Source of the DNA: Podarcis erhardii
Taxonomy: Eukaryota
DNA: 64,000 nucleotides
NCBI GenBank assembly: GCA_964252035.1
Contig: OZ176200.1
Direction: 5' to 3' (one strand)
Program-made: the position numbers and the translations under genes
The notes under the pieces: generated by a model
Seen by the model: the letters and a program-made list of their open reading frames with translations, nothing else
Told to the model about the DNA's origin: nothing
The model's database searches: none
In this document: piece after piece, positions 8,791-38,650 of the stretch
How positions within the stretch are numbered: position 1 is the first letter of the stretch
Layout: each line of letters opens with the position of its first letter

Positions 8791-11399
8791 AGCTGCAATA
8801 TCCCCGTGTGTCCTCACGTCAAACGTTACACTGTTCATGCAAGTAGGCCTCGTGTGTGAGCAAGTTACTCGCACATCAGCTGGCTGAGCTAATATCTGTA
8901 CCGGCAAGCACTTTGTTTTCTCCTTTCTAAACCCTGTCTAGAGCCCAGCAGCATTTCCTCAAGCATTCTCTCTCTACCCCCCTCCCACTTGCTGTTGTGT
9001 ATTGAGAAAGAGGGAGGGCATTATGGTAGAGACATTGCTTTTAATTGCTTCAGATTAACATATGAATCAAATAAGATGAATAGTGTGGAATCTGAGGAAA
9101 ATTGGAACATTCCCCCCATAAGTTCCCAAGGTCATATGTCAAGAGCACAATTTTACAAATCTTTCAGTATAACTTTCTTTCTAGATTTTACCTGTTTAAT
9201 TAAAAAACAAAACAAAAAAATTGGCCTTATGACCACTTTCTCTTCTAATAAGCCACTAACCCTGGGGAAGCCAACTTAAAAACAAACAAACTGCCTTTAC
9301 TCTGGTGGTACCTTTAAGGGCAGCTTGATATACAGAAATGTAACCAGTGAAGCTTTTTCCTACATAAGGAAAGAATAATCCTGGGAAAAGCTTCATCTGA
9401 TACATTGTCTGTCACATTGACATTAAAGGCACAGAAGGAGAGCTGGGGTTGGGTGGGTATGGCAGGTCCACTCAAAACACTGCAGTACAGTATATATAAC
9501 ACAAAGTCAGGGGCGTGAGTGTTACAGCGTAAGTTACTCAGCTGCACATATAGCAGGCTGCCTAAACTAGTGTGCAGTAACACTAAGTGTGACAATAGGC
9601 AGTATGAACTCAAATGCATGTGTGTGTTTTAATGCTGTTTTAGTGCCCTGATGGATTATGCATTGCATTAACCCACTTCCTATGGATTACCCTGAATTGT
9701 CCCCAAACAAACAGAGCAGTGCAATGACCCTTGGTCATAATTTTGCAATGTGAAATGGAAACAAGAAGAGGATAACCAGTACAACCCAACTCAAACTTGC
9801 ATTTTTCATGAAGAGACCTACTGCTGATGTATAATTGTTCTTGTAAAACAGAGGTTTCAGATTTTCTACCTTCAAAACACCATTTCCACATAATCTCAAG
9901 AGAACTGGACTACCATAAATTGTGGCACAAGCAACTGTTTCCATAGCATTGAGAATCTTTATAGTACAGCAGTTCACATACAATACTTGCTGTGGTTCTC
10001 TTGTCTGGCAAACAGAGGCCCTGATCTGCTGCACATTCTTCACACACCAATGTATTATTTAGGCTACCTCCCCACAAAGCCAAACAAGTATACTCCTCTA
10101 TTGGGTGTCTTCCCATTTAGTCATGGAAAGCTGCTTTATGATGACATTGGATCTTTGTCGACATCTGGCTACAGGAAGCAATTCCCCTGTTGCTCCTATA
10201 GGATGTTCTGCAGAGAAATCCTATATGGATATTCCATCTCTGTGGAACTTTAAGCTCTGTTCTTTTGACTCACCATCCTTTGATGAGCCTACTGGGATAT
10301 GGGTCTTTGATGGTAGGAGCTTCCTAGTCTGCAAGGCTGGCTTCTAGTTCAGAGGGAAGACACATCCTTCAAGGAGCTAGTGGTGGTTCTACCTCAGGGT
10401 TAAGCTCATTACACCCGCTTAGCTGGATCTGCACCCTCTCCAACTGGGTATGGTACAGTAATTAATTGCTTCATGTGCATACAAACACATTCTGCTGCTA
10501 GTTTCCGTGACTTTACAATCAGGAAATGAAAATAGTATTGAGTTAATCTCTGGTCCCAAGAATAGGAAAGACAACCACTTCTCATTTGTTTAAGTTTTTG
10601 TTTTAAAGGTTCATTGTCATTGACATTTGCACACAGAAAATAAGAACAAGTGACAAATACAAAAATGCTTGAAGACAGTTGTTGAAATGTATTGCATTTA
10701 TTTAAAAACAGCATCAGAGTGTTACAGATGATCAATACTAGATGGCATTCTCTTAAAAATAAATGCCTGTAATTCATTTGAGGGCTCTACCGATGTCATA
10801 AGTTGCTAATATGCAGGCAACATAATTTGTTAACAGCTGGAACCATCCTATGGGGAAGTACTCCATTGTATTATATCAGGCACTGGAAAGTGATCTTAAT
10901 AAAATATGGAAATATTTCAATATAACCTTTTGAATGTGTTGATCTTTCACATGTTCCTCAATACAGCCTTTTAAATATGTGGATTTTGCACTGAGGTAAT
11001 ATCTCTAGAGAACTGATGCCTTCTTTTCTCAAACCAAGCAACAGCAACCCAAATATATTCTCGCATCCGCCAATATATGTCCATTTCCCTTTTTTCAAAT
11101 GGTGTTTAAGAGCTGTGACTACTTAAATAAATAAGTTGTAGTATTTTCTCCCCACTCTTTACCTGAAAAAGCTCCTATAGCAGCTTATGTAAGATCAATA
11201 ACACAAGATAGTCCCTGCCCTCCAGCTGGCTTGAAATCTAAAAGGCAGGACACAAAAAGAAAAGGGGACCAGGAGGAAAGGAGAAAACAAGCACATTCAG
11301 GCAGCAGTTCTTAAAGTTACAAAGCTGTTATAATGTCCAGCTGGAACTGAAACAGTTCAGGGAGAAAAAGGCAAAGTGAGTTGGTCTTTCAGCAGAGAT

Positions 11400-11653
11400 G
11401 TGGGAGCAGGTCTTGTTTCCCTAGTTTTCCCTCTGTTTATGCTGCAGACTTCCAAAATTGAATGTAGATAGATAGGTTGACTACAGCTGCTGTCACACAC
11501 CACATATTTAATTGAAAGCTGCAACAGTCTGATGAGGAAGAAGAGAACAGCTAGTATTGAGGTGGGGAAAAGGTTCATTCCCCCAAACTAGCAGTAAGCA
11601 GGAAATCTACAATATCTGTACACATGCACCTATTTCACAACTTTCCCATGGAA
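11400..11653 (+). repeat. 254-bp host segment, left copy of the duplication flanking the copia element
   Basis: GTGGGAGCAGG...CTTTCCCATGGAA, identical by eye to 15979-16232 (offset 4579). Confidence 0.95.
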
Positions 11654-12187
11654 GATTTCACCCCTCCCATATCCAAGAATCTCCTGAGGTCTCTGCTGAC
11701 TCTACAGAGAGGAGGAGCAATGTACTGCTCTCTACTTAATTAGTCAAGTGAGTGAGTCAGTCTCTGTGTGAGAGAGAGAGTCAGTCAGTGTGTCGGAGAG
11801 AGAGTGCAAGAGATCGTGTTTATAGATAAGATTGCTGCTAAGAGCAGCTGCAGGCACTCAGAGTATAGCATTGATTTATGCTCAGAATATTTAGCTCTGT
11901 ATATAGTTTGTATCATAGCTGTAGTTATAGAATAAAGGAGGATATTTTACAGAGCTGCTCTCCGAGTGGTTTATACTCTGCAAGACTCTGCAAAACGCTG
12001 CTGCGCAACGACTGTATTATTGAGACAGTGAATCCGGTGCTCTCAGCTCCAAGCTGTGAGTCCACAGCACTGTGACCTGTTCCTGTGGGAAAGGAGGTCT
12101 CTGGCAGTGCTACCCAGCTCGCCTAGCCCAGTCGGGGCTGTAGTGCATGAGTCCAGTCGGTACACTGGCTCAAGGGCGATGCTGACA
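11654..12187 (+). repeat. 5' LTR (534 bp, lacks the first 6 bp TGAGGA)
   Basis: Identical by eye to 15445-15978; ends in ...GCTGACA; AP-1 TGAGTCA 11753-11759; AATAAA 11931-11936. Confidence 0.95.
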
Positions 12188-12189
12188 TC

Positions 12190-12203
12190 GGTTATGGGCC
12201 CAG
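12190..12203 (+). promoter_or_regulatory. Primer binding site complementary to the internal (anticodon-arm) part of initiator tRNA-Met
   Basis: GGTTATGGGCCCAG, 2 nt after the LTR, is the reverse complement of CTGGGCCCATAACC in tRNA-iMet; the half-tRNA primer type used by Drosophila copia. Confidence 0.9.
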
Positions 12204-12528
12204 TCGTCTGACCAGTCATTGTTTCAGTCATCCCAGTCGTCCCAGTCGCCAGAGGTTTCTGTTGCTGATTGCTGGACGGAGGAACGGAGGCTGCATGCTG
12301 GACTGCTTTGTGGTGCCTAGAAGCAGAGCTGTGTTGGAGCAGAGTGCTCAAGCTGCCGCTGTTGCTGTTGCTGCTGCTTGAGGTATGTTGCTGACTGCCA
12401 AATAAAGAAGATAGCATCCCTGTTTGCCTGTTAATTGCGCTCTGAGTGGGAGAGAGAGTGGCTGAAGAAGTCCAAGGCTTTATCTGTGTTTGCACGAGGG
12501 AAGTTTCTTGCTCTGAGTAATAGCAGAC

Positions 12529-15057
12529 ATGGCCTGTGCACATTCTGGCCAGATGGCTCTATCCTTTCCCCTCCTCACGCCTGAAAACTATGCAGTTTGG
12601 CAAGTTAAGATGAAAGCGCTTTTGCAGAGGGAAAAGCTATTTCACACCATAGAAGATGACCCTCCAGATAAAGATGATGATGATTGGGCTGAGTGGCATG
12701 CTGCAGATATGAAAGCCCGAGGGACAATTGTTTTGAGTGTTTCAGACCACTTGCTGGTGAACCTAGAGGGTCAAGAGACTGCACAAGCTGTTTGGCATAA
12801 GTTGAGAGATATGCATCTGAGACAAAATGCTGGTTCCAGTGTGATTTTCTTCAAGAAGCTGTGCAGGTTGGAGTTGCAGAAAGGTGGTGATTTGCCTAGC
12901 CATCTATCTCAGTTAAAGCGTCTCAGACAGGACCTTGTTCAGCGAGACCTGGCTATTTCAGAGGCTGTGTTTGCAATGCTGATGATAAATAGCCTAGATG
13001 ATTCTTACGATGGAGTAGCTACCCAGATTTCCACAATGCCTGCTGACCGGCTAACAGAAGATTATGTGTCTAGCGTGCTCTTGAATGAGTGGGATCGCAG
13101 ACAGGCTGTTAGAGAAAGCCGGGACTGTGCTGCTAAAAATGTGCTTGAAAATGTGCCTGAGTCTTCAGCAGGGGAAAGTGAAAGTGAAACTGCTGCTGTT
13201 AAAGCTTTGAAATTGAAGCGGTGCTTTTCGTGTGGAGCACAAGGCCATTTGAGTTTCCAGTGCTGCAAGAAATCTTCAAAGAAGAAGGGAAACTTCAGAG
13301 GCAGAGGGGGAGGAGGACGAAATCCCCAAGCACCTGCTACTTCAAAGGCTTTGATCTCTCGCTGTCCCAATCAACGTGGGCGGAGTTTCTTCGTGATCGA
13401 CTCTAGCTTTACCAACCACGTAGCCAAAGATAAGGATCTCTTTGTTCAGCTTGAGAAGCAAGAGAAAGAAATTCATCAAGCAGATGGGACACTTCTCACG
13501 AGTGAGGCTAAGGGAACTGTGTTCTTCAAGAGCCTGAATGCAACAATTAAGAATGTCCTGTATGCGCCTGATATTCAGGACAATTTGTTGAGTGTTTCCC
13601 AGCTTGATCATCAAGGTTTTAAGGTGGTGTTTGCTAAATCTCGCTGTGAAATTCGTCGAGATGGCAAGCTCATTCTATATGCAAAATGTGTAAATGGTCT
13701 GTACCAATTGCCTTTTGTTTCAGGTACAGGTACTGCAGAAGCAACTGAGAAAGAGTGTTGCAATTTGTCTGTTGATAAGAATGAGAAGTTGCATGACCAA
13801 TGTATTCATTATTACCACCGTGTTTATGCTCATTTGAATTTCCAGGCTGTGGCAAAAATGCCTGATATGGTTCAGGGTATGAAGCTGAAAGAATGTCCCT
13901 ACCACATGAAATGTGTTTCTTGTGCTGAGAGTAAGGCAAGGCAAGCTCCCAAAGGTACAGAGTCTGGGAGAGAGGCCAAGAAACCATACGAAGTCATTCA
14001 TGCAGACTTAGTGGGGCCTCTAGCGCTCTCTAGAGGCAATTCAAGGTTTTTCATGGTTTTGATAGACTCCTACTCAAAATATGCTTGGGTCTATATACTA
14101 CAGAAAAAGTCTGAAGCCTTTACCAAGTTTCGTCAGTTTTGTAAATGGCTCAGGAATGTACATAATGAGAATGTACATTGTATTTTCACTGACAGGGGTG
14201 GAGAGTTTTGTTCAGAGGAGTTTGAGGCTTTTCTTTCTGAACAGGGCATTGAGCATAGGACTGCCACGCCCAGATCCCCCTGGCAGAATGGTTTATGTGA
14301 GACCCTGCAGCAAGGAATCAGAACATTGTTACATGATTCGGGGCTGCCCAATCCTTTTTGGGCCGAAGCTCTTTCGTTTTTCTGTCACGTGTATAACAGG
14401 AGGTACCAGTCCGCAGTAAATTGCACCCCATATGAGATGCTTCACGGAAGGAAGCCATGTGTGAAGCACTTTAGAATTTTTGGGTCGGAGGTTTGGGTGC
14501 ACACCTCGCAGGGTGACAAACTGAGTAAGCGTGGAGAACATGGTGTTTTCCTAGGATATGAGAAAGGGTCTTATCGTGTCCTGATCACAGACACGAAAAC
14601 CATAAGGCTGACCAGGAGCATTGACGACAATCCACAATGGGACAGAGTTGGCGTTTTTCAGTGCCATCCCATTTGTGATGATGGTGCAAGAGGGGCAAAG
14701 AAAGTTAAGAGGGAGGCAAGTTCTGATGTGATTGATAATCCTGATGCCAATGTAGTTCCGGATGGTGGCACAGATTATCAGAGCCCAAAAGCCTCAGGTG
14801 AGTCTGACACTGACTCAGACTTAGCAGCTTCATATACTTTAGCTCCCCATTCTCCCAAGGAGGAGGAAGCACCAGAACAAGAGGATCAAAGAGTTTTGCG
14901 CAGATCCGAGAGAACCACCAAGGGTGTACCACCGAAAAGGTTTTCTGAAGAGTTCGCTAAGGCTGCGGTCACATGCAACTCTGGTGGGGTTTTTAAACCT
15001 AGCATGAAGTGTGCTGAGAGTAGTAGCACAAAACGCTTCATTTATTTCCTTACCTGA
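12529..15057 (+). CDS. Copia Gag-protease-integrase polyprotein (842 aa), no RT/RNase H
   Basis: Gag N-term NYAVWQVKMKALL; zinc knuckle CFSCGAQGHLSFQC (C232-C245); protease FVIDSS...NVLYAPDIQDNLLSVSQL; HHCC YHRVYAH...CVSC; integrase D493 (IHADLVGP), D555 (FTDRGGEF), E591 (QNGLCE); SH3-like GVFLGYE; ends after RRSERTTKGVPPKRF. Confidence 0.93.
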   Translation: MACAHSGQMALSFPLLTPENYAVWQVKMKALLQREKLFHTIEDDPPDKDDDDWAEWHAADMKARGTIVLSVSDHLLVNLEGQETAQAVWHKLRDMHLRQNAGSSVIFFKKLCRLELQKGGDLPSHLSQLKRLRQDLVQRDLAISEAVFAMLMINSLDDSYDGVATQISTMPADRLTEDYVSSVLLNEWDRRQAVRESRDCAAKNVLENVPESSAGESESETAAVKALKLKRCFSCGAQGHLSFQCCKKSSKKKGNFRGRGGGGRNPQAPATSKALISRCPNQRGRSFFVIDSSFTNHVAKDKDLFVQLEKQEKEIHQADGTLLTSEAKGTVFFKSLNATIKNVLYAPDIQDNLLSVSQLDHQGFKVVFAKSRCEIRRDGKLILYAKCVNGLYQLPFVSGTGTAEATEKECCNLSVDKNEKLHDQCIHYYHRVYAHLNFQAVAKMPDMVQGMKLKECPYHMKCVSCAESKARQAPKGTESGREAKKPYEVIHADLVGPLALSRGNSRFFMVLIDSYSKYAWVYILQKKSEAFTKFRQFCKWLRNVHNENVHCIFTDRGGEFCSEEFEAFLSEQGIEHRTATPRSPWQNGLCETLQQGIRTLLHDSGLPNPFWAEALSFFCHVYNRRYQSAVNCTPYEMLHGRKPCVKHFRIFGSEVWVHTSQGDKLSKRGEHGVFLGYEKGSYRVLITDTKTIRLTRSIDDNPQWDRVGVFQCHPICDDGARGAKKVKREASSDVIDNPDANVVPDGGTDYQSPKASGESDTDSDLAASYTLAPHSPKEEEAPEQEDQRVLRRSERTTKGVPPKRFSEEFAKAAVTCNSGGVFKPSMKCAESSSTKRFIYFLT

Positions 15058-15425
15058 CATTTGAAGGATCAGGATTGAAGAAGCAAGCATGTGTTTAAAG
15101 TGGTTTGTTCAAATCTGCCTAATTAGCAATGTCAATTTGTATTTGAGGGAAGAAATGTGTGTGAAGATTTTCCAGAAGCTGCTTATTCATTTGTGTATTC
15201 ACAGTGTGTATTTTGTGTAAACTGCAGGTTGAGATTTATGTTTTAACTCTTTCCTAATAGACACAGAGTGGTTGCAGTAACTGTATAATGGTATTGATAA
15301 AAGTGTCTTAGATAAAGGGGGAGAGAGATACCTGCAAATATGTTACCAAGGTTGTAAGCAGAGAACAACTTTTGGAGTGTGTGTGTAAATTGCAGTTATG
15401 TTAAAGATTCTTGAATGGTCGGATG

Positions 15426-15438
15426 AAATGGGGGAGGA
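15426..15438 (+). promoter_or_regulatory. Polypurine tract
   Basis: AAATGGGGGAGGA immediately before the TG start of the 3' LTR. Confidence 0.85.
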
Positions 15439-15978
15439 TGAGGAGATTTCACCCCTCCCATATCCAAGAATCTCCTGAGGTCTCTGCTGACTCTACAGAG
15501 AGGAGGAGCAATGTACTGCTCTCTACTTAATTAGTCAAGTGAGTGAGTCAGTCTCTGTGTGAGAGAGAGAGTCAGTCAGTGTGTCGGAGAGAGAGTGCAA
15601 GAGATCGTGTTTATAGATAAGATTGCTGCTAAGAGCAGCTGCAGGCACTCAGAGTATAGCATTGATTTATGCTCAGAATATTTAGCTCTGTATATAGTTT
15701 GTATCATAGCTGTAGTTATAGAATAAAGGAGGATATTTTACAGAGCTGCTCTCCGAGTGGTTTATACTCTGCAAGACTCTGCAAAACGCTGCTGCGCAAC
15801 GACTGTATTATTGAGACAGTGAATCCGGTGCTCTCAGCTCCAAGCTGTGAGTCCACAGCACTGTGACCTGTTCCTGTGGGAAAGGAGGTCTCTGGCAGTG
15901 CTACCCAGCTCGCCTAGCCCAGTCGGGGCTGTAGTGCATGAGTCCAGTCGGTACACTGGCTCAAGGGCGATGCTGACA
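15439..15978 (+). repeat. 3' LTR (540 bp, TG...CA)
   Basis: Begins TGAGGAGATTTC and ends GCTGACA; matches the 5' LTR at offset 3791. Confidence 0.95.
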
Positions 15979-16232
15979 GTGGGAGCAGGTCTTGTTTCCC
16001 TAGTTTTCCCTCTGTTTATGCTGCAGACTTCCAAAATTGAATGTAGATAGATAGGTTGACTACAGCTGCTGTCACACACCACATATTTAATTGAAAGCTG
16101 CAACAGTCTGATGAGGAAGAAGAGAACAGCTAGTATTGAGGTGGGGAAAAGGTTCATTCCCCCAAACTAGCAGTAAGCAGGAAATCTACAATATCTGTAC
16201 ACATGCACCTATTTCACAACTTTCCCATGGAA
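15979..16232 (+). repeat. 254-bp host segment, right copy of the duplication flanking the copia element
   Basis: Starts immediately after the terminal CA of the 3' LTR; identical by eye to 11400-11653. Confidence 0.95.
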
Positions 16233-31381: not shown

Positions 31382-33875
31382 TGCAGTGTGCAGAAGTATA
31401 TAGTCTGGTGGTTGAAAGAATAAAAAGCCTACTCCTGGCAAAACATCCATCATGGTGTCATGAGTTTAAAGAAAAGGGTCCCAACACTAGGTCACACAAA
31501 GAAAACTGACTGGAGAAGGAATAAAAGGAAATAAAAGCCTGAGAACACAACATGCAAGACAACAGTTCTGACCATTCAGACATGTCTTGACTTGCTCATT
31601 TTTCTAAGATCGGAGCAGGGGAGAATTTGTGTTGTTTCCCTTCCTTCTAATAGTTTCTGGGAAACACTTTTATTTTTCTTTAATTGTCTTTTCATGTGCC
31701 ACATAGCAGCCATCCCCGTTGGCACACAATCCATCTTGCAGTGGTGCCTTGCTTATGTCACACAGTGCTCCTAAATCGATAGCCTGCCTCTTTAAAATTC
31801 CTACAGTACAGCTGAGAACCAGAAAGAATCCCCAGTGGGAATACTAGGAAATTGGAGATTATTTCACAAGCAGAGGTTCCCAAGGTCTGGCCCCAGGAGA
31901 ACATTCTGGTTTAACAAGGAGTTAATCGTACCATTTTTATGTATGTGAAAACTGCGACTTAATGAGGAGTGCTTTCCTTAAGGGGAGGGGGGAATTCAGA
32001 TTTCTTTTGATTGAATCATAAACAGCTCCCTCAGTACTTAAGGCAATCAAGTTCAAGCTCAAATGAGTCCTCCATTTTATCACTGGGATTTTAAAGCGTT
32101 GTTCATAACTTCCTTCTAGGCAATGCCTTATCTCAGCAGCTCTTGCAAAGGAAAGAGCTCCAACCTTAACTGCATTGCATACAGTTATGAGGTTGAGGGC
32201 GGAGTGGGGGAGAGGGAAGACTTTCCCATACTCTCCTTCAAGTCCTATCTTGACAAAACAACATGTTTTCCTAGCCAGGGGCGCTGCTGTGTTCCCACTT
32301 CCAGCCACATAGCTCCAGCTGTTCTCTAACAAATACAGCCGCAACACACTTCTTTCCTTCTGCAGCACCCTAATAAACCAAGAGTAAATTACCGAGTGAC
32401 CTACTTACTGGGGTTGTTTAAATAATCCTCAACGTGGCACTGTAATTTGATGTTTTCCACTGAAGGACAGAGGGATTTCACATGAAAACATAAGCTTGCC
32501 ACAAAAAGGCTGGGAATTAAAGCTAATAATAGTAATAATAATAATGGTGGGAATGGGCATAAAATAGCTGCTTGGTTGTTTTGATAAAAAAATAAAAGTT
32601 ATAGTGTTTTGTTTTTGTTTTAAAGGCAGCGATCGGTTGGCGTATCATGTGGTGTGATTCCATTATCGAGTCCAATATAGAAAATTGATTTGCAAGATTA
32701 ATATCAAATCATTACTTTTGCATCGTCTCTTTGTGACACCATCATTTTTATGGGAAGCCTTTTATTTTCTTGCATTTGCTTCTACTCATCTCAAATTGCA
32801 ATGTGATACACACACCGTACATTTAAAGCACATTACTTTCCCCTGCCCCATCAGAGAATATACTGAGAGGTTAGTTTTTACAGGTGCTGGAAGTTATAGT
32901 TTTGTGAGGGATACACTACGGTTTGCTGAGTTTTCAGGAGTAACACAAAAGCTGTGGAGACTAGACTTCCGGTCGGCGCCAGCGTTTGATGGCGGTCCTA
33001 GCCTCGAGCTCCGAGGCAGGACTGCTCCGTAAGTTCGGGTCTTACCCGCTACGGCAAGCGGGGGACCCCTAAAATCACAGGCGCTGAAGCCTGTGAGCAA
33101 GGAGATTCGGTGGGCACCTTTGCGCCCCCCCGGCATCGTGAAAGAGCCTTTTTAAAGGCTCCGGAGCGGCATCGGGGTGAGCGCGGTGCTGAGGATCGCT
33201 ACCCAGCTTACGGAGTGAAGCCGCGTCGCCATTAACGGAGAGCGCCGATTTCTTTCTGAAACTAACGATTGGCAACAACAATACCCGTGAGTAAGAACGC
33301 AAAATTAAAACGGGACTTAAAAATCCAGAAGATTTGGCTGAAAACGGGAAGGTAAAAATTAAGGAAGTCAGCCTCCCGGATCTGCATGATTAACGGAGCA
33401 ATGAAAAGACCGAGCTGTGTTTAAATGGACTTTCTTTTTAACTTTTACTAGACCAGACATCGAAAGGATCTCCCCCCTGTAGTGCAGGGGAAGGGGGGGA
33501 GGAAACAGAATTAATTTAACCTGCAATAGAAAGGGATAAGGAATAAAAAACCTCTGCTGCCGACACTTCTGGTCAGGCTGCCGGAGCAGCGATCGCCTGA
33601 AAAAGGAACTGTCAAGTGAGCTGTCAAAGGACAGTGGTTATAAAATAAGACTTATTTGAAACATATTAACGGGACTTTGGTGGATTACAATTTTAACAGT
33701 AAAGTGCTACAAATTAAAGACTCTTAGTGGGACTTTTGCCTCTGGACTTTCTGTTTCTTTGTTGTGGGTGACTTTGGATGGTTACAATTTCCTCCTCTAG
33801 AGGGCTTTAGTTGCATTACGGTGTATCCAGCGGGACTTTCCACTTGCAACTTTCCTGTGTGAATGACCTTGAGTT

Positions 33876-34907
33876 ATGAGCAACCCGCCAGAAGAGATTT
33901 CAACAAGAAGTAAAACAAAGCAGGCTCAAAAACAAGCTCAAAAAAGAGGCTCTTTATCAGGAGCAGCAGCTGCACAAGAAAAAATAACAGCAGCATCAAT
34001 GGAGTCAATGACACAGGCTCTGCTCAAAATAAATCAGTCACTAGAAGTACTCACCAAGCAATCTGCAGAACTTACTAAACAGTCTACAGAGAACTCTAAG
34101 AAACTGACGGAGTTGACAACAAGATTAGACCTGAACACAACAACAATTTCATCTAACACAGATTCTATAAACCGTTTGGTTCAAGAGTCTACGGAAACAA
34201 GGAGAATAGCTGAGAGTGCTAGGTCTACTGCCGAAGAAACCAAAGGAAAGTTTGCGCCTATTGCAAAAAAAGTACATGAACATGATACAGCATTAGCCCT
34301 ACTAGAACTGGAAAGGAAAAGCAAGAACCTGAAATTAAGACTGGTTCCAGAAGAGGAAGAGGACAAGCTTGGGGAATTCCTCACAGATAAATTTCAAGAT
34401 TTTTGGAATGATGAGCTAGATGGAGAAGAAGATGAATTTGTGATAACCTCAGCCTTTCGGATTGGCAGGAAGCAAGGGAAGAAGCCAAGAGATTGTTTAA
34501 TTACCCTGGGATCAAAGGAACAAAGAGACAAAATACTGAACCTACATTTCCAGAAGGCCTTGGTCATTAAAAATTCTCAGATCCAGATTTTCAAGGATAT
34601 TCCTAAATATTTTTTGGAGGTTAGATCTCAATTTAAAGAATTAGTTGATCTACTTAAACAGAATAATATCCCATTCAGGTGGGAATTTCCACAAGGGCTG
34701 TCCTTTAACTTTAAAGGGAAGAAAATTAAAATAAAATCAAACCAGGATAAAGAACTCTTTTTGGAAAGAAATCAAGAGGATCTTCAGAAAGGAACTGTTA
34801 GTGAGGGGGAAGTACCGGACATTTCAAATCTATCATTTGGACTGAACCGAGCACCGACCGAGGAGGAACAACAACTTGGTGCAGTCGGTGGAAGAGCTAC
34901 CCAATAA
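33876..34907 (+). CDS. L1 ORF1p (343 aa; coiled coil, RRM, CTD)
   Basis: Basic N-terminus, heptad-rich coiled coil, KSKNLKLRLVPE RRM start, AFRIG, QIFKDIP, IPFRWEFPQGLSF motifs typical of vertebrate L1 ORF1. Confidence 0.9.
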   Translation: MSNPPEEISTRSKTKQAQKQAQKRGSLSGAAAAQEKITAASMESMTQALLKINQSLEVLTKQSAELTKQSTENSKKLTELTTRLDLNTTTISSNTDSINRLVQESTETRRIAESARSTAEETKGKFAPIAKKVHEHDTALALLELERKSKNLKLRLVPEEEEDKLGEFLTDKFQDFWNDELDGEEDEFVITSAFRIGRKQGKKPRDCLITLGSKEQRDKILNLHFQKALVIKNSQIQIFKDIPKYFLEVRSQFKELVDLLKQNNIPFRWEFPQGLSFNFKGKKIKIKSNQDKELFLERNQEDLQKGTVSEGEVPDISNLSFGLNRAPTEEEQQLGAVGGRATQ

Positions 34908-34912
34908 CAAAA

Positions 34913-37900
34913 ATGTCTCTGCAACTCTACAGCTGGAATTGTAATGGTTTGAACCACCCTCGAAAAAGGGGCCAAGTATTTCATCTATTAAAGAAAGAAC
35001 ATCTAGATGTAATCTGCCTACAAGAAACCCACATTGCCAGGATACATAGAAAACTTTTAATAAACAAGAGATTAGGACAAGAATTTATTTCATCAGATAG
35101 AGTTAAGAAAAGAGGAGTTGTGATTTATGTTAAGGAAAAATTTGAACCAAAACTGATTTTTAAGGATGACCAAGGAAGATACCTGGCAGTGGAAATTCAA
35201 ATTTATGGAGAAAAGATGTTGATTGTTGGAGTTTATGCACCAAACGAGGGGAAGGCTGAATTTTTCAAGAAGTTGCACGAGACTTTAATGGACTTTTTGG
35301 ATTTTAAAATCATAATGATGGGTGATATGAATGGAGTCGTCTCCACAAACATGGACAAGGCCCAAAGACAAACAATATCTAATGATGGAAGACTACCAAA
35401 GACTTTCTTTGAACTGACTGACACTATGGACCTGATTGACATTTGGAGAACTAGGAACCCTCTGGAAAGGGAGGGGACCTTTTTCTCTGAAGCAAAAATG
35501 ACATGGACTAGAATTGATCAAATATGGACTTCTAGTAATCTGGCATCGAAGGTTAAAAAAATAGAAATCTGCCCAAAGACCTGTTCTGACCACAATGCTG
35601 TCAAGATGGAAATGAAACTGACAACAGCTGGAACCTTTAGATGGAGAATGAATGACACCCTCTTTGGAGATGAGGAAATTTGTAAAAAGGCCCAAAAAAC
35701 ACTTAAAGACTACTTCGAGATTAACATGAGATCAGACACCGAAAAAAGAGTTATTTGGGATGCAAGTAAAGCCGTGATGCGTGGCTTCCTAATACAACAG
35801 AATTCAATAAAGAGGAAAAAACAGAATGAGAAGAAAGAGAAAATTTGGAACCTAATAAAAGAAGGGGAGAAGAAATTGAGATCTAAGCCTAAATCTCATG
35901 AGATATTAAGAGAAATAAAATTCTATCAAACACAATATATGGAATTGATGAATCAGGAAATAGAATGGAAAATTAAACAAATGAGACAAAAGACTTTTGA
36001 GTCCGCAGATAAATGTGGGAAGCTACTGTCTTGGCAACTGAAAAAGAGGCAAAAATTGAATACAGTGACATCACTTGAAGTAGATGGGAAGTTTATTAAT
36101 AAACCAAATGAGATAAGCAATTGTTTTCAAAGTTTCTTCAAGAAATTATACAAACAAGGGCCAAAAAACGAACAGGAGATAGAAGAATTTATCGGAAAAT
36201 ACGGCCTACCAAAAATCTCTGAAAATAATAGAAGGAGTTTGAATGAGAAAATTACAGATCAAGAAATAGAGAGCGCCATTCAGGATATGCAGCTGGGAAA
36301 ATCACCAGGACCAGATGGACTAACCGCGAGATATTATAAAGTACTGAAGGATTGGTTAATACAACCATTGAAAGAAGTCTGCAATCAAATTTTGGAAGGG
36401 AAAAAGGCTCCCGAATCGTGGAAGGAAGCATTCATTTCACTTATACCGAAGACAGAAACTGAGAAACATCAAGTTAAGAATTATCGCCCTATATCACTTT
36501 TGAATGTGGATTATAAAATTTTTGCAGACATTTTAGCAAAAAGATTCAAAAAAGTGTTGTTAGAGGAGATTCACAGGGACCAAACAGGCTTTCTACCAGG
36601 CAGGCAATTGTCAGATAATGTGAGGAATATTATAGATATTCTAGAACTTCTGGAAACTGACATAAATAGAAAAGCTGTTTTGATTTTTGTGGATGCAGAG
36701 AAAGCCTTTGACAATATTTGTTGGAGCTTTATGAAGAGGAATCTCCAAGGGATGGGGGTAGGCAAGAACTTTGAAAATGGTATAAGTGCAATTTACTCTG
36801 AGCAAAAGGCCAAACTAATTGTAAATGGTATGGTTATGGACGAAATTCCAATAGAGAAAGGGACACGACAGGGATGCCCAATCTCTCCTCTATTGTTTAT
36901 ATCGGTACTGGAGGTTTTCCTAAATATGATTAGAAGAGACCAGCTGGTTAAAGGTATACAGGTCGGAACTAAACATTATAAGTTAAGAGCATTTGCAGAT
37001 GATCTAGTTTTGACATTACAACAGCCAGAAACCAGTACAAAAAGAGTTTTGGAACTTATTGAAATATTTGGTCAGGTAGCAGGTTTTAAATTAAATAAAC
37101 ATAAGACAAAGGTGTTGGAAAAAAATCTTACGGTGGGGGAAAAAGACAGTTTTCAAAGAGAAACTGGTTTGGAAATTACTAAAAAGGTAAAATATCTGGG
37201 GGTGAATTTAACATCTAAGAATGTGAACCTATTTAAAGATAATTATGAGAAATGTTGGGCTGAAGTGAAGAAAGATTTTGATATATGGTCAAGATTGAGA
37301 CTTTCCTTGTTAGGCCGAATTGCTGTTATCAAGATGAATGTATTGCCGAGATTGTTGTTTCTGTTCCAGACATTGCAAATTCTAGATAAGATGGACTGTT
37401 TCAAGAAGTGGCAGAAAGACATATCTAAATTTGTCTGGCAGGGCAAAAAACCCAGAATAAAATTTAAGATTCTAACTGATGCAAAGGATAGAGGGGGCTT
37501 TGCCCTGCCGGACTTAAAACTTTACTATGAAGCAGCAGCTTTCTGCTGGCTGAAACCATGGCTACTTCTTGAGAATACAGACATTCTAGACCTGGAAGGT
37601 TATGATAATAACTTTGGTTGGCATGCATATTTATGGTACGATAAGGTAAAGGTACATAGAAATTTTAAAAACCATATTGTTAGGAAAGCATTGTATAATG
37701 TATGGAATCGATATAAAGATTTGTTTGAAAGTAAAACCCCTAGGTGGTTGTCACCAATGGAAGCCAAGGCGGTAAAAAGACTGAACATGGATACAGATTG
37801 GCCAAAATATTGTGAAATTATAGAATATGATGGTGAAAAGTTGAAACTACAGAGTTTCGAGAAATTGAAACCTAAAGTCCGAGATTGGTTACATTATTTC

Positions 37901-38650
37901 CAGATCAATGAAACTTTTAAGCAGGACAGAAAACTAGGATTTCAGAAGGAGAGGTCAAAGTTAGAAACAGAATTGCTAGAACCCAATACTAAGAATTTGT
38001 CTAGAATGTATAATCTGCTGCTAAAATGGAATACACAGGATGAAACGGTTAAATCAGCTATGATTAAGTGGGCACAGGATATTGGTCATGATATTATGTT
38101 TGCTGACTGGGAGCAGTTATGGACCACAGGTATTAAATTTACGGCATGCAGTGCCCTGAAAGAGAACATAATGAAAATGATCTATAGGTGGTACATGACC
38201 CCAGTCAAGCTTGCAAAGATATATCATTTGCCCAATAACAATTGTTGGAAGTGTAATGAATGTGAAGGAACTTTTTATCACCTTTGGTGGACCTGCCCAA
38301 AGATTAAGGCCTACTGGGAAATGATCTATAACGAAATTAAGAAAATCCTTAAGTGGACATTTGTAAAGAAACCGGAGGCTTTTCTCCTGGGCATGGTCGG
38401 CCAATTGGTACCAAAGAAAGATAGGACCTTTTTTATGTATGCAACAACAGCAGCAAGAATCCTCTTGGCGAAGTATTGGAAGACTAAAGAATTACCTACT
38501 CTGGAAGAATGGCAGACCAAGGTGACTGAATTTATGGGACTGGCAGAGATGACCGGCAGAATCCGTGACCAGAGGAAAGAGACAGTGGAGGAGGACTGGA
38601 AAAAATTTAAAATCTATCTTAAAAATTGTTGTAAAATTTCGGAATGTTAA
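34913..38650 (+). CDS. L1 ORF2p (1245 aa; APE endonuclease, RT, CCHC domain)
   Basis: EN: SWNCNGL, LQETH, GVYAP, GDMN, TRIDQ, SDHN. RT: SPGPDG, YRPISLLNVDYKI, DAEKAFD, GTRQGCPISP, FADD. C-term CWKC...HLWWTC. No stops. Confidence 0.95.
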   Translation: MSLQLYSWNCNGLNHPRKRGQVFHLLKKEHLDVICLQETHIARIHRKLLINKRLGQEFISSDRVKKRGVVIYVKEKFEPKLIFKDDQGRYLAVEIQIYGEKMLIVGVYAPNEGKAEFFKKLHETLMDFLDFKIIMMGDMNGVVSTNMDKAQRQTISNDGRLPKTFFELTDTMDLIDIWRTRNPLEREGTFFSEAKMTWTRIDQIWTSSNLASKVKKIEICPKTCSDHNAVKMEMKLTTAGTFRWRMNDTLFGDEEICKKAQKTLKDYFEINMRSDTEKRVIWDASKAVMRGFLIQQNSIKRKKQNEKKEKIWNLIKEGEKKLRSKPKSHEILREIKFYQTQYMELMNQEIEWKIKQMRQKTFESADKCGKLLSWQLKKRQKLNTVTSLEVDGKFINKPNEISNCFQSFFKKLYKQGPKNEQEIEEFIGKYGLPKISENNRRSLNEKITDQEIESAIQDMQLGKSPGPDGLTARYYKVLKDWLIQPLKEVCNQILEGKKAPESWKEAFISLIPKTETEKHQVKNYRPISLLNVDYKIFADILAKRFKKVLLEEIHRDQTGFLPGRQLSDNVRNIIDILELLETDINRKAVLIFVDAEKAFDNICWSFMKRNLQGMGVGKNFENGISAIYSEQKAKLIVNGMVMDEIPIEKGTRQGCPISPLLFISVLEVFLNMIRRDQLVKGIQVGTKHYKLRAFADDLVLTLQQPETSTKRVLELIEIFGQVAGFKLNKHKTKVLEKNLTVGEKDSFQRETGLEITKKVKYLGVNLTSKNVNLFKDNYEKCWAEVKKDFDIWSRLRLSLLGRIAVIKMNVLPRLLFLFQTLQILDKMDCFKKWQKDISKFVWQGKKPRIKFKILTDAKDRGGFALPDLKLYYEAAAFCWLKPWLLLENTDILDLEGYDNNFGWHAYLWYDKVKVHRNFKNHIVRKALYNVWNRYKDLFESKTPRWLSPMEAKAVKRLNMDTDWPKYCEIIEYDGEKLKLQSFEKLKPKVRDWLHYFQINETFKQDRKLGFQKERSKLETELLEPNTKNLSRMYNLLLKWNTQDETVKSAMIKWAQDIGHDIMFADWEQLWTTGIKFTACSALKENIMKMIYRWYMTPVKLAKIYHLPNNNCWKCNECEGTFYHLWWTCPKIKAYWEMIYNEIKKILKWTFVKKPEAFLLGMVGQLVPKKDRTFFMYATTAARILLAKYWKTKELPTLEEWQTKVTEFMGLAEMTGRIRDQRKETVEEDWKKFKIYLKNCCKISEC

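Follow-up and report, generated by a model that had tools for sequence, protein, structure and literature searches.

How does an LTR retrotransposon come to lie between two identical copies of 254 nucleotides (nt) of host DNA, with one of its ends exact and the other cut short? The question is raised by a copia-type element on contig OZ176200.1 of the Podarcis erhardii assembly GCA_964252035.1, in a stretch of 64,000 nt that we call the window. An initial annotation, made from the letters of the window, had explained the arrangement as a natural one-ended integration, rare by implication, in which integrase joined one LTR end and host repair captured the other. Here we weigh that explanation against the anatomy of the locus, the other copies of the family, contigs of public sequencing runs, and published retroviral cases.

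Anatomy of the insertion

The element is flanked by a maximal direct repeat of 254 nt, in which 11400-11653 and 15979-16232 agree without a mismatch. Its LTRs share a repeat of 535 nt (11653-12187 and 15444-15978), likewise without mismatches, and the window contains no N (Table 1). Because other genomic copies start with TGAGG and end with TGACA, the full-length LTR is fixed at 540 nt. The 5' LTR lacks TGAGG; five bases are certainly missing and the sixth is ambiguous, and the A at 11653 can be assigned to host or LTR, giving 1 nt of microhomology at the left junction. At the right junction the LTR ends canonically in GCTGACA, and host DNA follows directly at 15979. The repeat, the canonical right junction, and a left end short of about 6 nt with 1 nt of microhomology had all been described in the initial annotation, and all were recovered here, the clip being 5 to 6 nt. 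This copy has a 254-nt duplication in place of a 5-bp target duplication, combining one exact end, one truncated end, and a long duplication of adjoining host DNA. The insertion is probably young and heterozygous.

The idea that the repeated segment is cargo of the element was ruled out. Matches to it occurred only at window-derived loci among the 220 loci compared, and a genome search with 11100-11653 found the full segment only at the window locus. Since the whole segment is found there and in no other of the 220 loci, it is host DNA and not part of the element, as had been supposed. A search of the window against Rfam gave no matches, and none of the 28 flanking open reading frames (ORFs) searched matched Pfam. 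Elsewhere in the window, a LINE-like element on the plus strand (33873-38650) has an ORF of 344 amino acids (aa) and an endonuclease-reverse transcriptase (RT) ORF of 1281 aa, both open.

Table 1. Features of the insertion, in window coordinates
Feature	Position	Strand	Basis
Left copy of duplicated host segment; last base, A 11653, common with the LTR	11400..11653	+	
5' LTR truncated by 5-6 nt at its start (U3 end); the remainder matches the 3' LTR exactly	11654..12187	+	
Predicted 5-bp hairpin across the border of U5 and the primer-binding site (PBS); loop at LTR positions 535-538	12177..12190	+	z -3.2 for the 41-nt stretch containing the hairpin
TC dinucleotide between LTR and PBS	12188..12189	+	
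PBS, complementary to initiator tRNA-Met at an internal position, not at its 3' end	12190..12203	+	
Single ORF, 846 aa from stop to stop, first ATG at 12529	12517..15057	+	Pfam domains
Polypurine tract (PPT) and GA dinucleotide; purine run extends into U3	15425..15438	+	
Intact 3' LTR, 540 nt, TG...CA, canonical right (U5) junction	15439..15978	+	
Right copy of duplicated host segment; unique host DNA from 16233 on	15979..16232	+	

The element and its family

The ORF matches a copia-type Gag, a Pol beta-barrel, an integrase core, and an SH3-like domain (PF14223, E 9e-24; PF22936; PF00665; PF25597), and no Pfam domain for RT or RNase H was matched in its 846 aa. Integrase follows directly after Gag and the Pol beta-barrel, and with RT and RNase H absent the integrase-RT order cannot be read. 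Matches of similar length and 94-100% identity in 53 scored copies point to a non-autonomous family and not to one damaged copy; judged by its sequence, the family is an RT-less, non-autonomous, multi-copy copia-type retrotransposon. It resembles Ty1/copia elements in its copia-type Gag, integrase, 5-bp duplication, and internal tRNAiMet primer site, and the TG...CA LTRs, PBS, and PPT by which such elements are classified are all present; the window copy differs from them in having neither RT nor RNase H. Copia-type Ty1/copia elements of Drosophila are primed by an internal part of the initiator tRNA. The same 14 letters as in the PBS here lie within an antisense tRNAMet(i) oligonucleotide given in PMC1797187. 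The GA before the 3' LTR mirrors the TC after the 5' LTR, which would predict processing of 2 nt at each end.

RT-bearing copia elements with long open frames exist in the same genome, and the shared LTR was found at none of five RVT_2 (RT) loci, the best 5 of 150 scored. Many near-identical, stop-free, RT-bearing copia ORFs of ~1340 aa also occur genome-wide and point to a second, very young family.

The window ORF is four codons shorter, just past the putative catalytic Glu of integrase, than the ORFs of seven of the eight copies compared. A shortened integrase core would suit integrase-independent capture of cDNA, either by annealing or into a DNA break, with host repair joining the two ends; such capture is described for Tf1 and for integrase-dead HIV and leaves LTR truncations and no short duplication (PMC11042837). 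Against it, the right end is exact and there is no PBS-like host sequence, and L175, the eighth copy compared, has the same ORF length as the window copy together with a perfect 5-bp duplication. The four-codon shortening alone therefore does not explain the event, and we regard capture independent of integrase as very improbable.

Target duplications and clipped ends across the family

Exact motifs near the LTR start and at the LTR end occur 464 and 618 times genome-wide, respectively, these being motif counts that include internal LTR ends. The first 100 listed LTR ends represent 90 loci, of which 80 besides the window copy, chosen by an intact right end, were analysed, three of them at their far ends as well; nine of the 89 listed sample loci lie outside the tally, and L125 and L140 were unscorable. 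At L140, LTR heads are repeated in an AT microsatellite. Perfect 5-bp duplications flank 62 of the 80, with four more matching at 4/5 positions and three at 3/5; the remainder comprises one copy with a 4-bp duplication, one with none, seven that are left-clipped, and two that are unscorable. A 5-bp target duplication is the norm of the family, in agreement with the length that the initial annotation gave for copia integrases. A 4-bp duplication was recorded at L109.

The left breakpoints are packed at the LTR tip, five of seven in this right-end-anchored sample falling within ~11 nt of it (P ~1e-7 if breakpoints were uniform). Deep left clips occur at L108 (~307 nt) and L113 (~241 nt). Genome-wide searches with patterns of abnormal starts gave 39 hits; after removal of 16 and addition of L048, 24 left-clipped copies were retained, with clip depths of 1-9 nt. 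Fourteen of the 39 were dropped because they carry an LTR start variant that is 3 nt shorter (10 with a normal 5-bp duplication, one an internal 3' LTR, and three classed from matched letters), and two others were dropped as point changes. Copies with the shorter start and normal 5-bp duplications are L051, L060, L061, L064, L073, L075, L079, L089, L090, L092, and L102. That this variant integrates with normal duplications indicates that the U3 end tolerates change past its first bases. Two individual copies may be mentioned: L107 has a 7-nt clip with four shared bases, and L174, which is young and full-length, has an altered start and lacks any duplication within about 600 nt.

The corresponding right-end search gave seven hits, from which L086 was dropped as an internal rearrangement and to which L015 was added, for seven right-clipped copies (L015, L081, L083, L084, and L085, also L082 and L087). 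Five of these stop at LTR position 535, one at 535 or 538, and one at 537, so that all seven stops fall in the loop of the predicted hairpin at the U5/PBS border. No duplication was found within ~5 kb of any of the seven; the contrast with left-clipped copies in this respect is not significant (p 0.13). Clipped left ends outnumber clipped right ends by 24 to 7 genome-wide (Fisher p 1.3e-4, with approximate denominators), a contrast that persists after correction for lower detection at the right end (p 5e-4). In this RT-less copia family, failure is about fourfold commoner at the U3 than at the U5 end.

Long duplications and microhomology

The implied rarity of the event was not supported by the survey. 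The genome holds at least nine events of this kind, the window copy included, with duplications of 48-385 nt (Table 2). Among the 24 left-clipped copies, seven have a duplication of at least 48 nt (window, L077, L068, L050, which is the same as L200, L078, L055, and L074), three are ambiguous, two are untestable, and 12 have none within 4.9-8.8 kb; L108 and the pair L180/L183, counted once, bring the total to nine. The rate of ~9 in about 540 insertions is an estimate and a lower bound.

Table 2. Long-duplication events in the genome
Copy	Duplication (nt)	Microhomology (nt)	Clip
Window	254	1	
L077	181	5	
L068	144	0	
L108	385	3	~307 nt
L200 (=L050)	68	2	
L078	48	3	
L055	about 84	5	
L074	about 70-80	1	
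L180/L183	306	3	none; ends intact

Microhomology at the nine joins averages 2.6 nt, against 0.68 nt for random joins (P ~1.5e-5), with the null drawn at LTR positions 2-12 and used for all nine events. The 1 nt at the window copy is by itself at chance level, as 44% of random joins have 1 nt or more. In seven of the eight other events the duplicates differ from each other, which argues that the structure is real in the family, since a false duplication by assembly would not give divergence. Identity between the duplicates tracks identity between the LTRs in three of the four two-LTR cases (100 and 100% at the window, 99.5 and 99.1% at L108, 99.0-99.4 and 98.9% at L180/L183), L200 being the exception (100 and 96.4%). 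L180 and L183, on contig C13, have both flanks in common at 99%, together with the 306-nt duplication and intact LTR ends; L178, on contig C7, matches their right flank over its first 22 nt and over another 128 nt, and a PPT precedes the first LTR of L178.

The expectation that recombination between the duplicates would excise the element rather than leave a solo LTR proved overstated. Solo LTRs make up five of the nine long-duplication events, showing that recombination between LTRs continues inside long duplications; a clean excision leaves no trace, and the excision rate is thus unreadable from one assembly.

Contigs of public sequencing runs

Contigs of public runs, as distinct from raw reads, were compared with the window over 9900-11730, a range in which none of them covers the entire structure. 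Runs X1 and X18 come from two organisms other than that of X15 and X17, and in both a single contig crosses the segment once and continues for ~1560 nt without joints. They show neither a tandem duplication nor the insertion; short-word contigs collapse repeats, so this is no proof of an empty allele. These contigs bear on a pseudo-duplication, in which two normal insertions, on different alleles and ~250 nt from each other, would have recombined via their LTRs, or the element would have landed in a duplication already present. PMC5488345 considers a related model for HERV-K (HML-2), and a history of this sort could explain L180/L183, where both ends are intact. It predicts an intact start of the 5' LTR, however, and the start at the window is clipped; moreover, X1 and X18 carry the segment once, with no joint leading back. 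We therefore rate it the most improbable origin of the window copy.

X15 and X17 derive from one sample and match the window nearly exactly. The X15 contigs break at the right junction, one ending at 11429 and the next beginning at 11400, a sign of a second path entering there, and extra depth of ~4.8 versus ~8 in one bin suggests a heterozygous insertion. The left junction 11653|11654 is spanned by no contig among the pieces listed for X15 or X17, and coverage is not raised in the depth bins at that place. Such contigs have plausibly lost short paths into a very deep repeat, and the left junction of the window copy is documented by the assembly alone.

An artefact of assembly or library at a heterozygous insertion, in which sequence of the empty haplotype, as far as 11653, was fused to the filled haplotype, would account for this missing junction, for the appearance of heterozygosity, and for the complete identity of the copies. 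Yet the canonical alternative, with a junction at 11404, is equally missing from the X15 and X17 contigs (X15 contig 11 extends to 11429), and contigs show presence, not absence. No overlap exists to drive such a join, the clip falls at the same position as in L077, L048, and L050, and the diverged duplicates at other copies speak for a real structure. An artefact is, in our judgment, quite improbable.

Two further features of these runs were recorded. In X15 and X17, a 262-nt piece at 10679-10940 forms a contig of its own with ~2x the flanking depth, a pattern absent from X1 and X18; the assembly has one copy of this piece, and the excess depth possibly reflects an unassembled second copy. 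At 11036, a 6-nt insertion is present in X17 and absent from the window and from X15, although the two runs share a sample, and this is probably a heterozygous site.

Model for the origin of the insertion

The window copy probably arose by one-ended integration of a young RT-less copia-type element, with integrase responsible for the U5 join and host repair for attaching the free U3 end at a distance of 254 nt. From the observed anatomy, the clustering of breakpoints at the tip, the microhomology excess, and the end bias, we infer an order of events and the enzymes involved. Integrase would have joined the U5 end, observed here as canonical, to the host at 11400; the U3 end would have remained unjoined and been trimmed by 5-6 nt. 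Extension of this U3 end by a host polymerase may have followed, templated 254 nt along by an intact copy of the locus, and closure of the join through recombination would have left the 254 nt present twice, as in the model for ASLV and HIV. Had priming occurred on the opposite side of the site, clipped copies without a duplication would result; the Discussion of PMC5041404 likewise assigns duplications to priming on one side and deletions to priming on the other. The 12 clipped copies that lack a duplication would be consistent with the deletion outcome; some of them could also be products of later deletions.

The proposal of the initial annotation thus stands in part. The normal U5 end, the left breakpoints packed at the tip, and the excess microhomology across the family favor it; against it count the lack of a left-junction contig in X15 and X17, the long duplication of L180/L183 with no clip, and the half of the left-clipped copies (12 of 24) that have no duplication.

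A two-step history would yield the identical sequence. The element would have inserted normally at 11400, and a microhomology-mediated template switch would later have led from the empty allele, through 11653, into the filled allele just inside the LTR. Microhomology is expected here too, and the deep clips of L108 and L113 also fit. Such a switch gives no reason, however, for breakpoints to gather at the LTR tip, and with LTRs and duplicates both 100% identical, little time was available for a second event. We consider a later switch unlikely, and prefer one-ended integration.

Why the U3 end should be the one to fail is a matter for guesses: plus-strand priming might be imprecise at a purine tract extending into U3, or the U3 end might be a poorer integrase substrate. 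HIV-1 depends on PPT selection both to form a correct end and to integrate (PMC2665208). A fixed 6-nt slip of plus-strand cleavage at a purine motif repeated across the PPT/U3 border was rejected as the sole cause, since clip depths spread over 1-9 nt and no single miscleavage site explains them. More tentatively, faulty U3 ends in a family that borrows its RT may make 5-9% of germline insertions one-ended, with U3 failing at varied depths and U5 in the hairpin loop, a generalization that we think possible but doubtful.

Comparison with known systems

Aberrant proviruses from one-ended integration are known for ASLV and HIV-1 (PMC5041404, which cites Oh et al. 2006 and 2008). In such proviruses, one end is normal and the other often truncated and joined by the host, usually with short homology, and the products show duplications of hundreds to thousands of base pairs, or deletions (PMC5041404). 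This matches the precedent on which the initial annotation drew, an impaired end giving one normal junction and one host-repaired junction with a large duplication. The window copy is like them in its normal end, its truncated end, and its long duplication. The retroviral events, as presented there, were forced in cultured cells by end mutations, inhibitors, or weak integrases, whereas those described here are natural, are found in a genome assembly, belong to an RT-less copia-type element, and are biased to the U3 end.

The novelty that had been implied is not supported. For HML-2, the accessible text of PMC5488345 already reports duplications of 250 bp and 111 bp with validated, sequenced empty alleles, records duplications of >10 bp at 8 of 451 sites, and proposes excision through recombination of the duplicates. 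That frequency is close to the ~9 in about 540 estimated here, so the event and its rate are of a known kind. HML-2 is betaretrovirus-like, and the same text draws no connection between long duplications and LTR clipping, microhomology, or end bias. The accessible part of PMC12312487 holds no long-duplication data, its method having taken only duplications of <15 bp. Within the literature searched, outside which most subscription papers lie, there was no report of such long-duplication events for a copia-type element and no link of long duplication to clipping and end bias in natural copies.

Implications

The single event is ordinary for its kind, and the family is the more useful object. Its natural aberrant junctions number in the dozens and connect long duplication with a clipped end and with microhomology, as the forced retroviral experiments predicted. 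Annotation filters that demand a duplication of 4-6 bp or TG...CA ends lose roughly a tenth of the real insertions in such a family. If it is true that 5-9% of insertions are one-ended, the family would be a standing source of deletions and of 50-400-nt duplications in its host, and its copies would naturally document the half-site pathway, with an end bias that is fixed.
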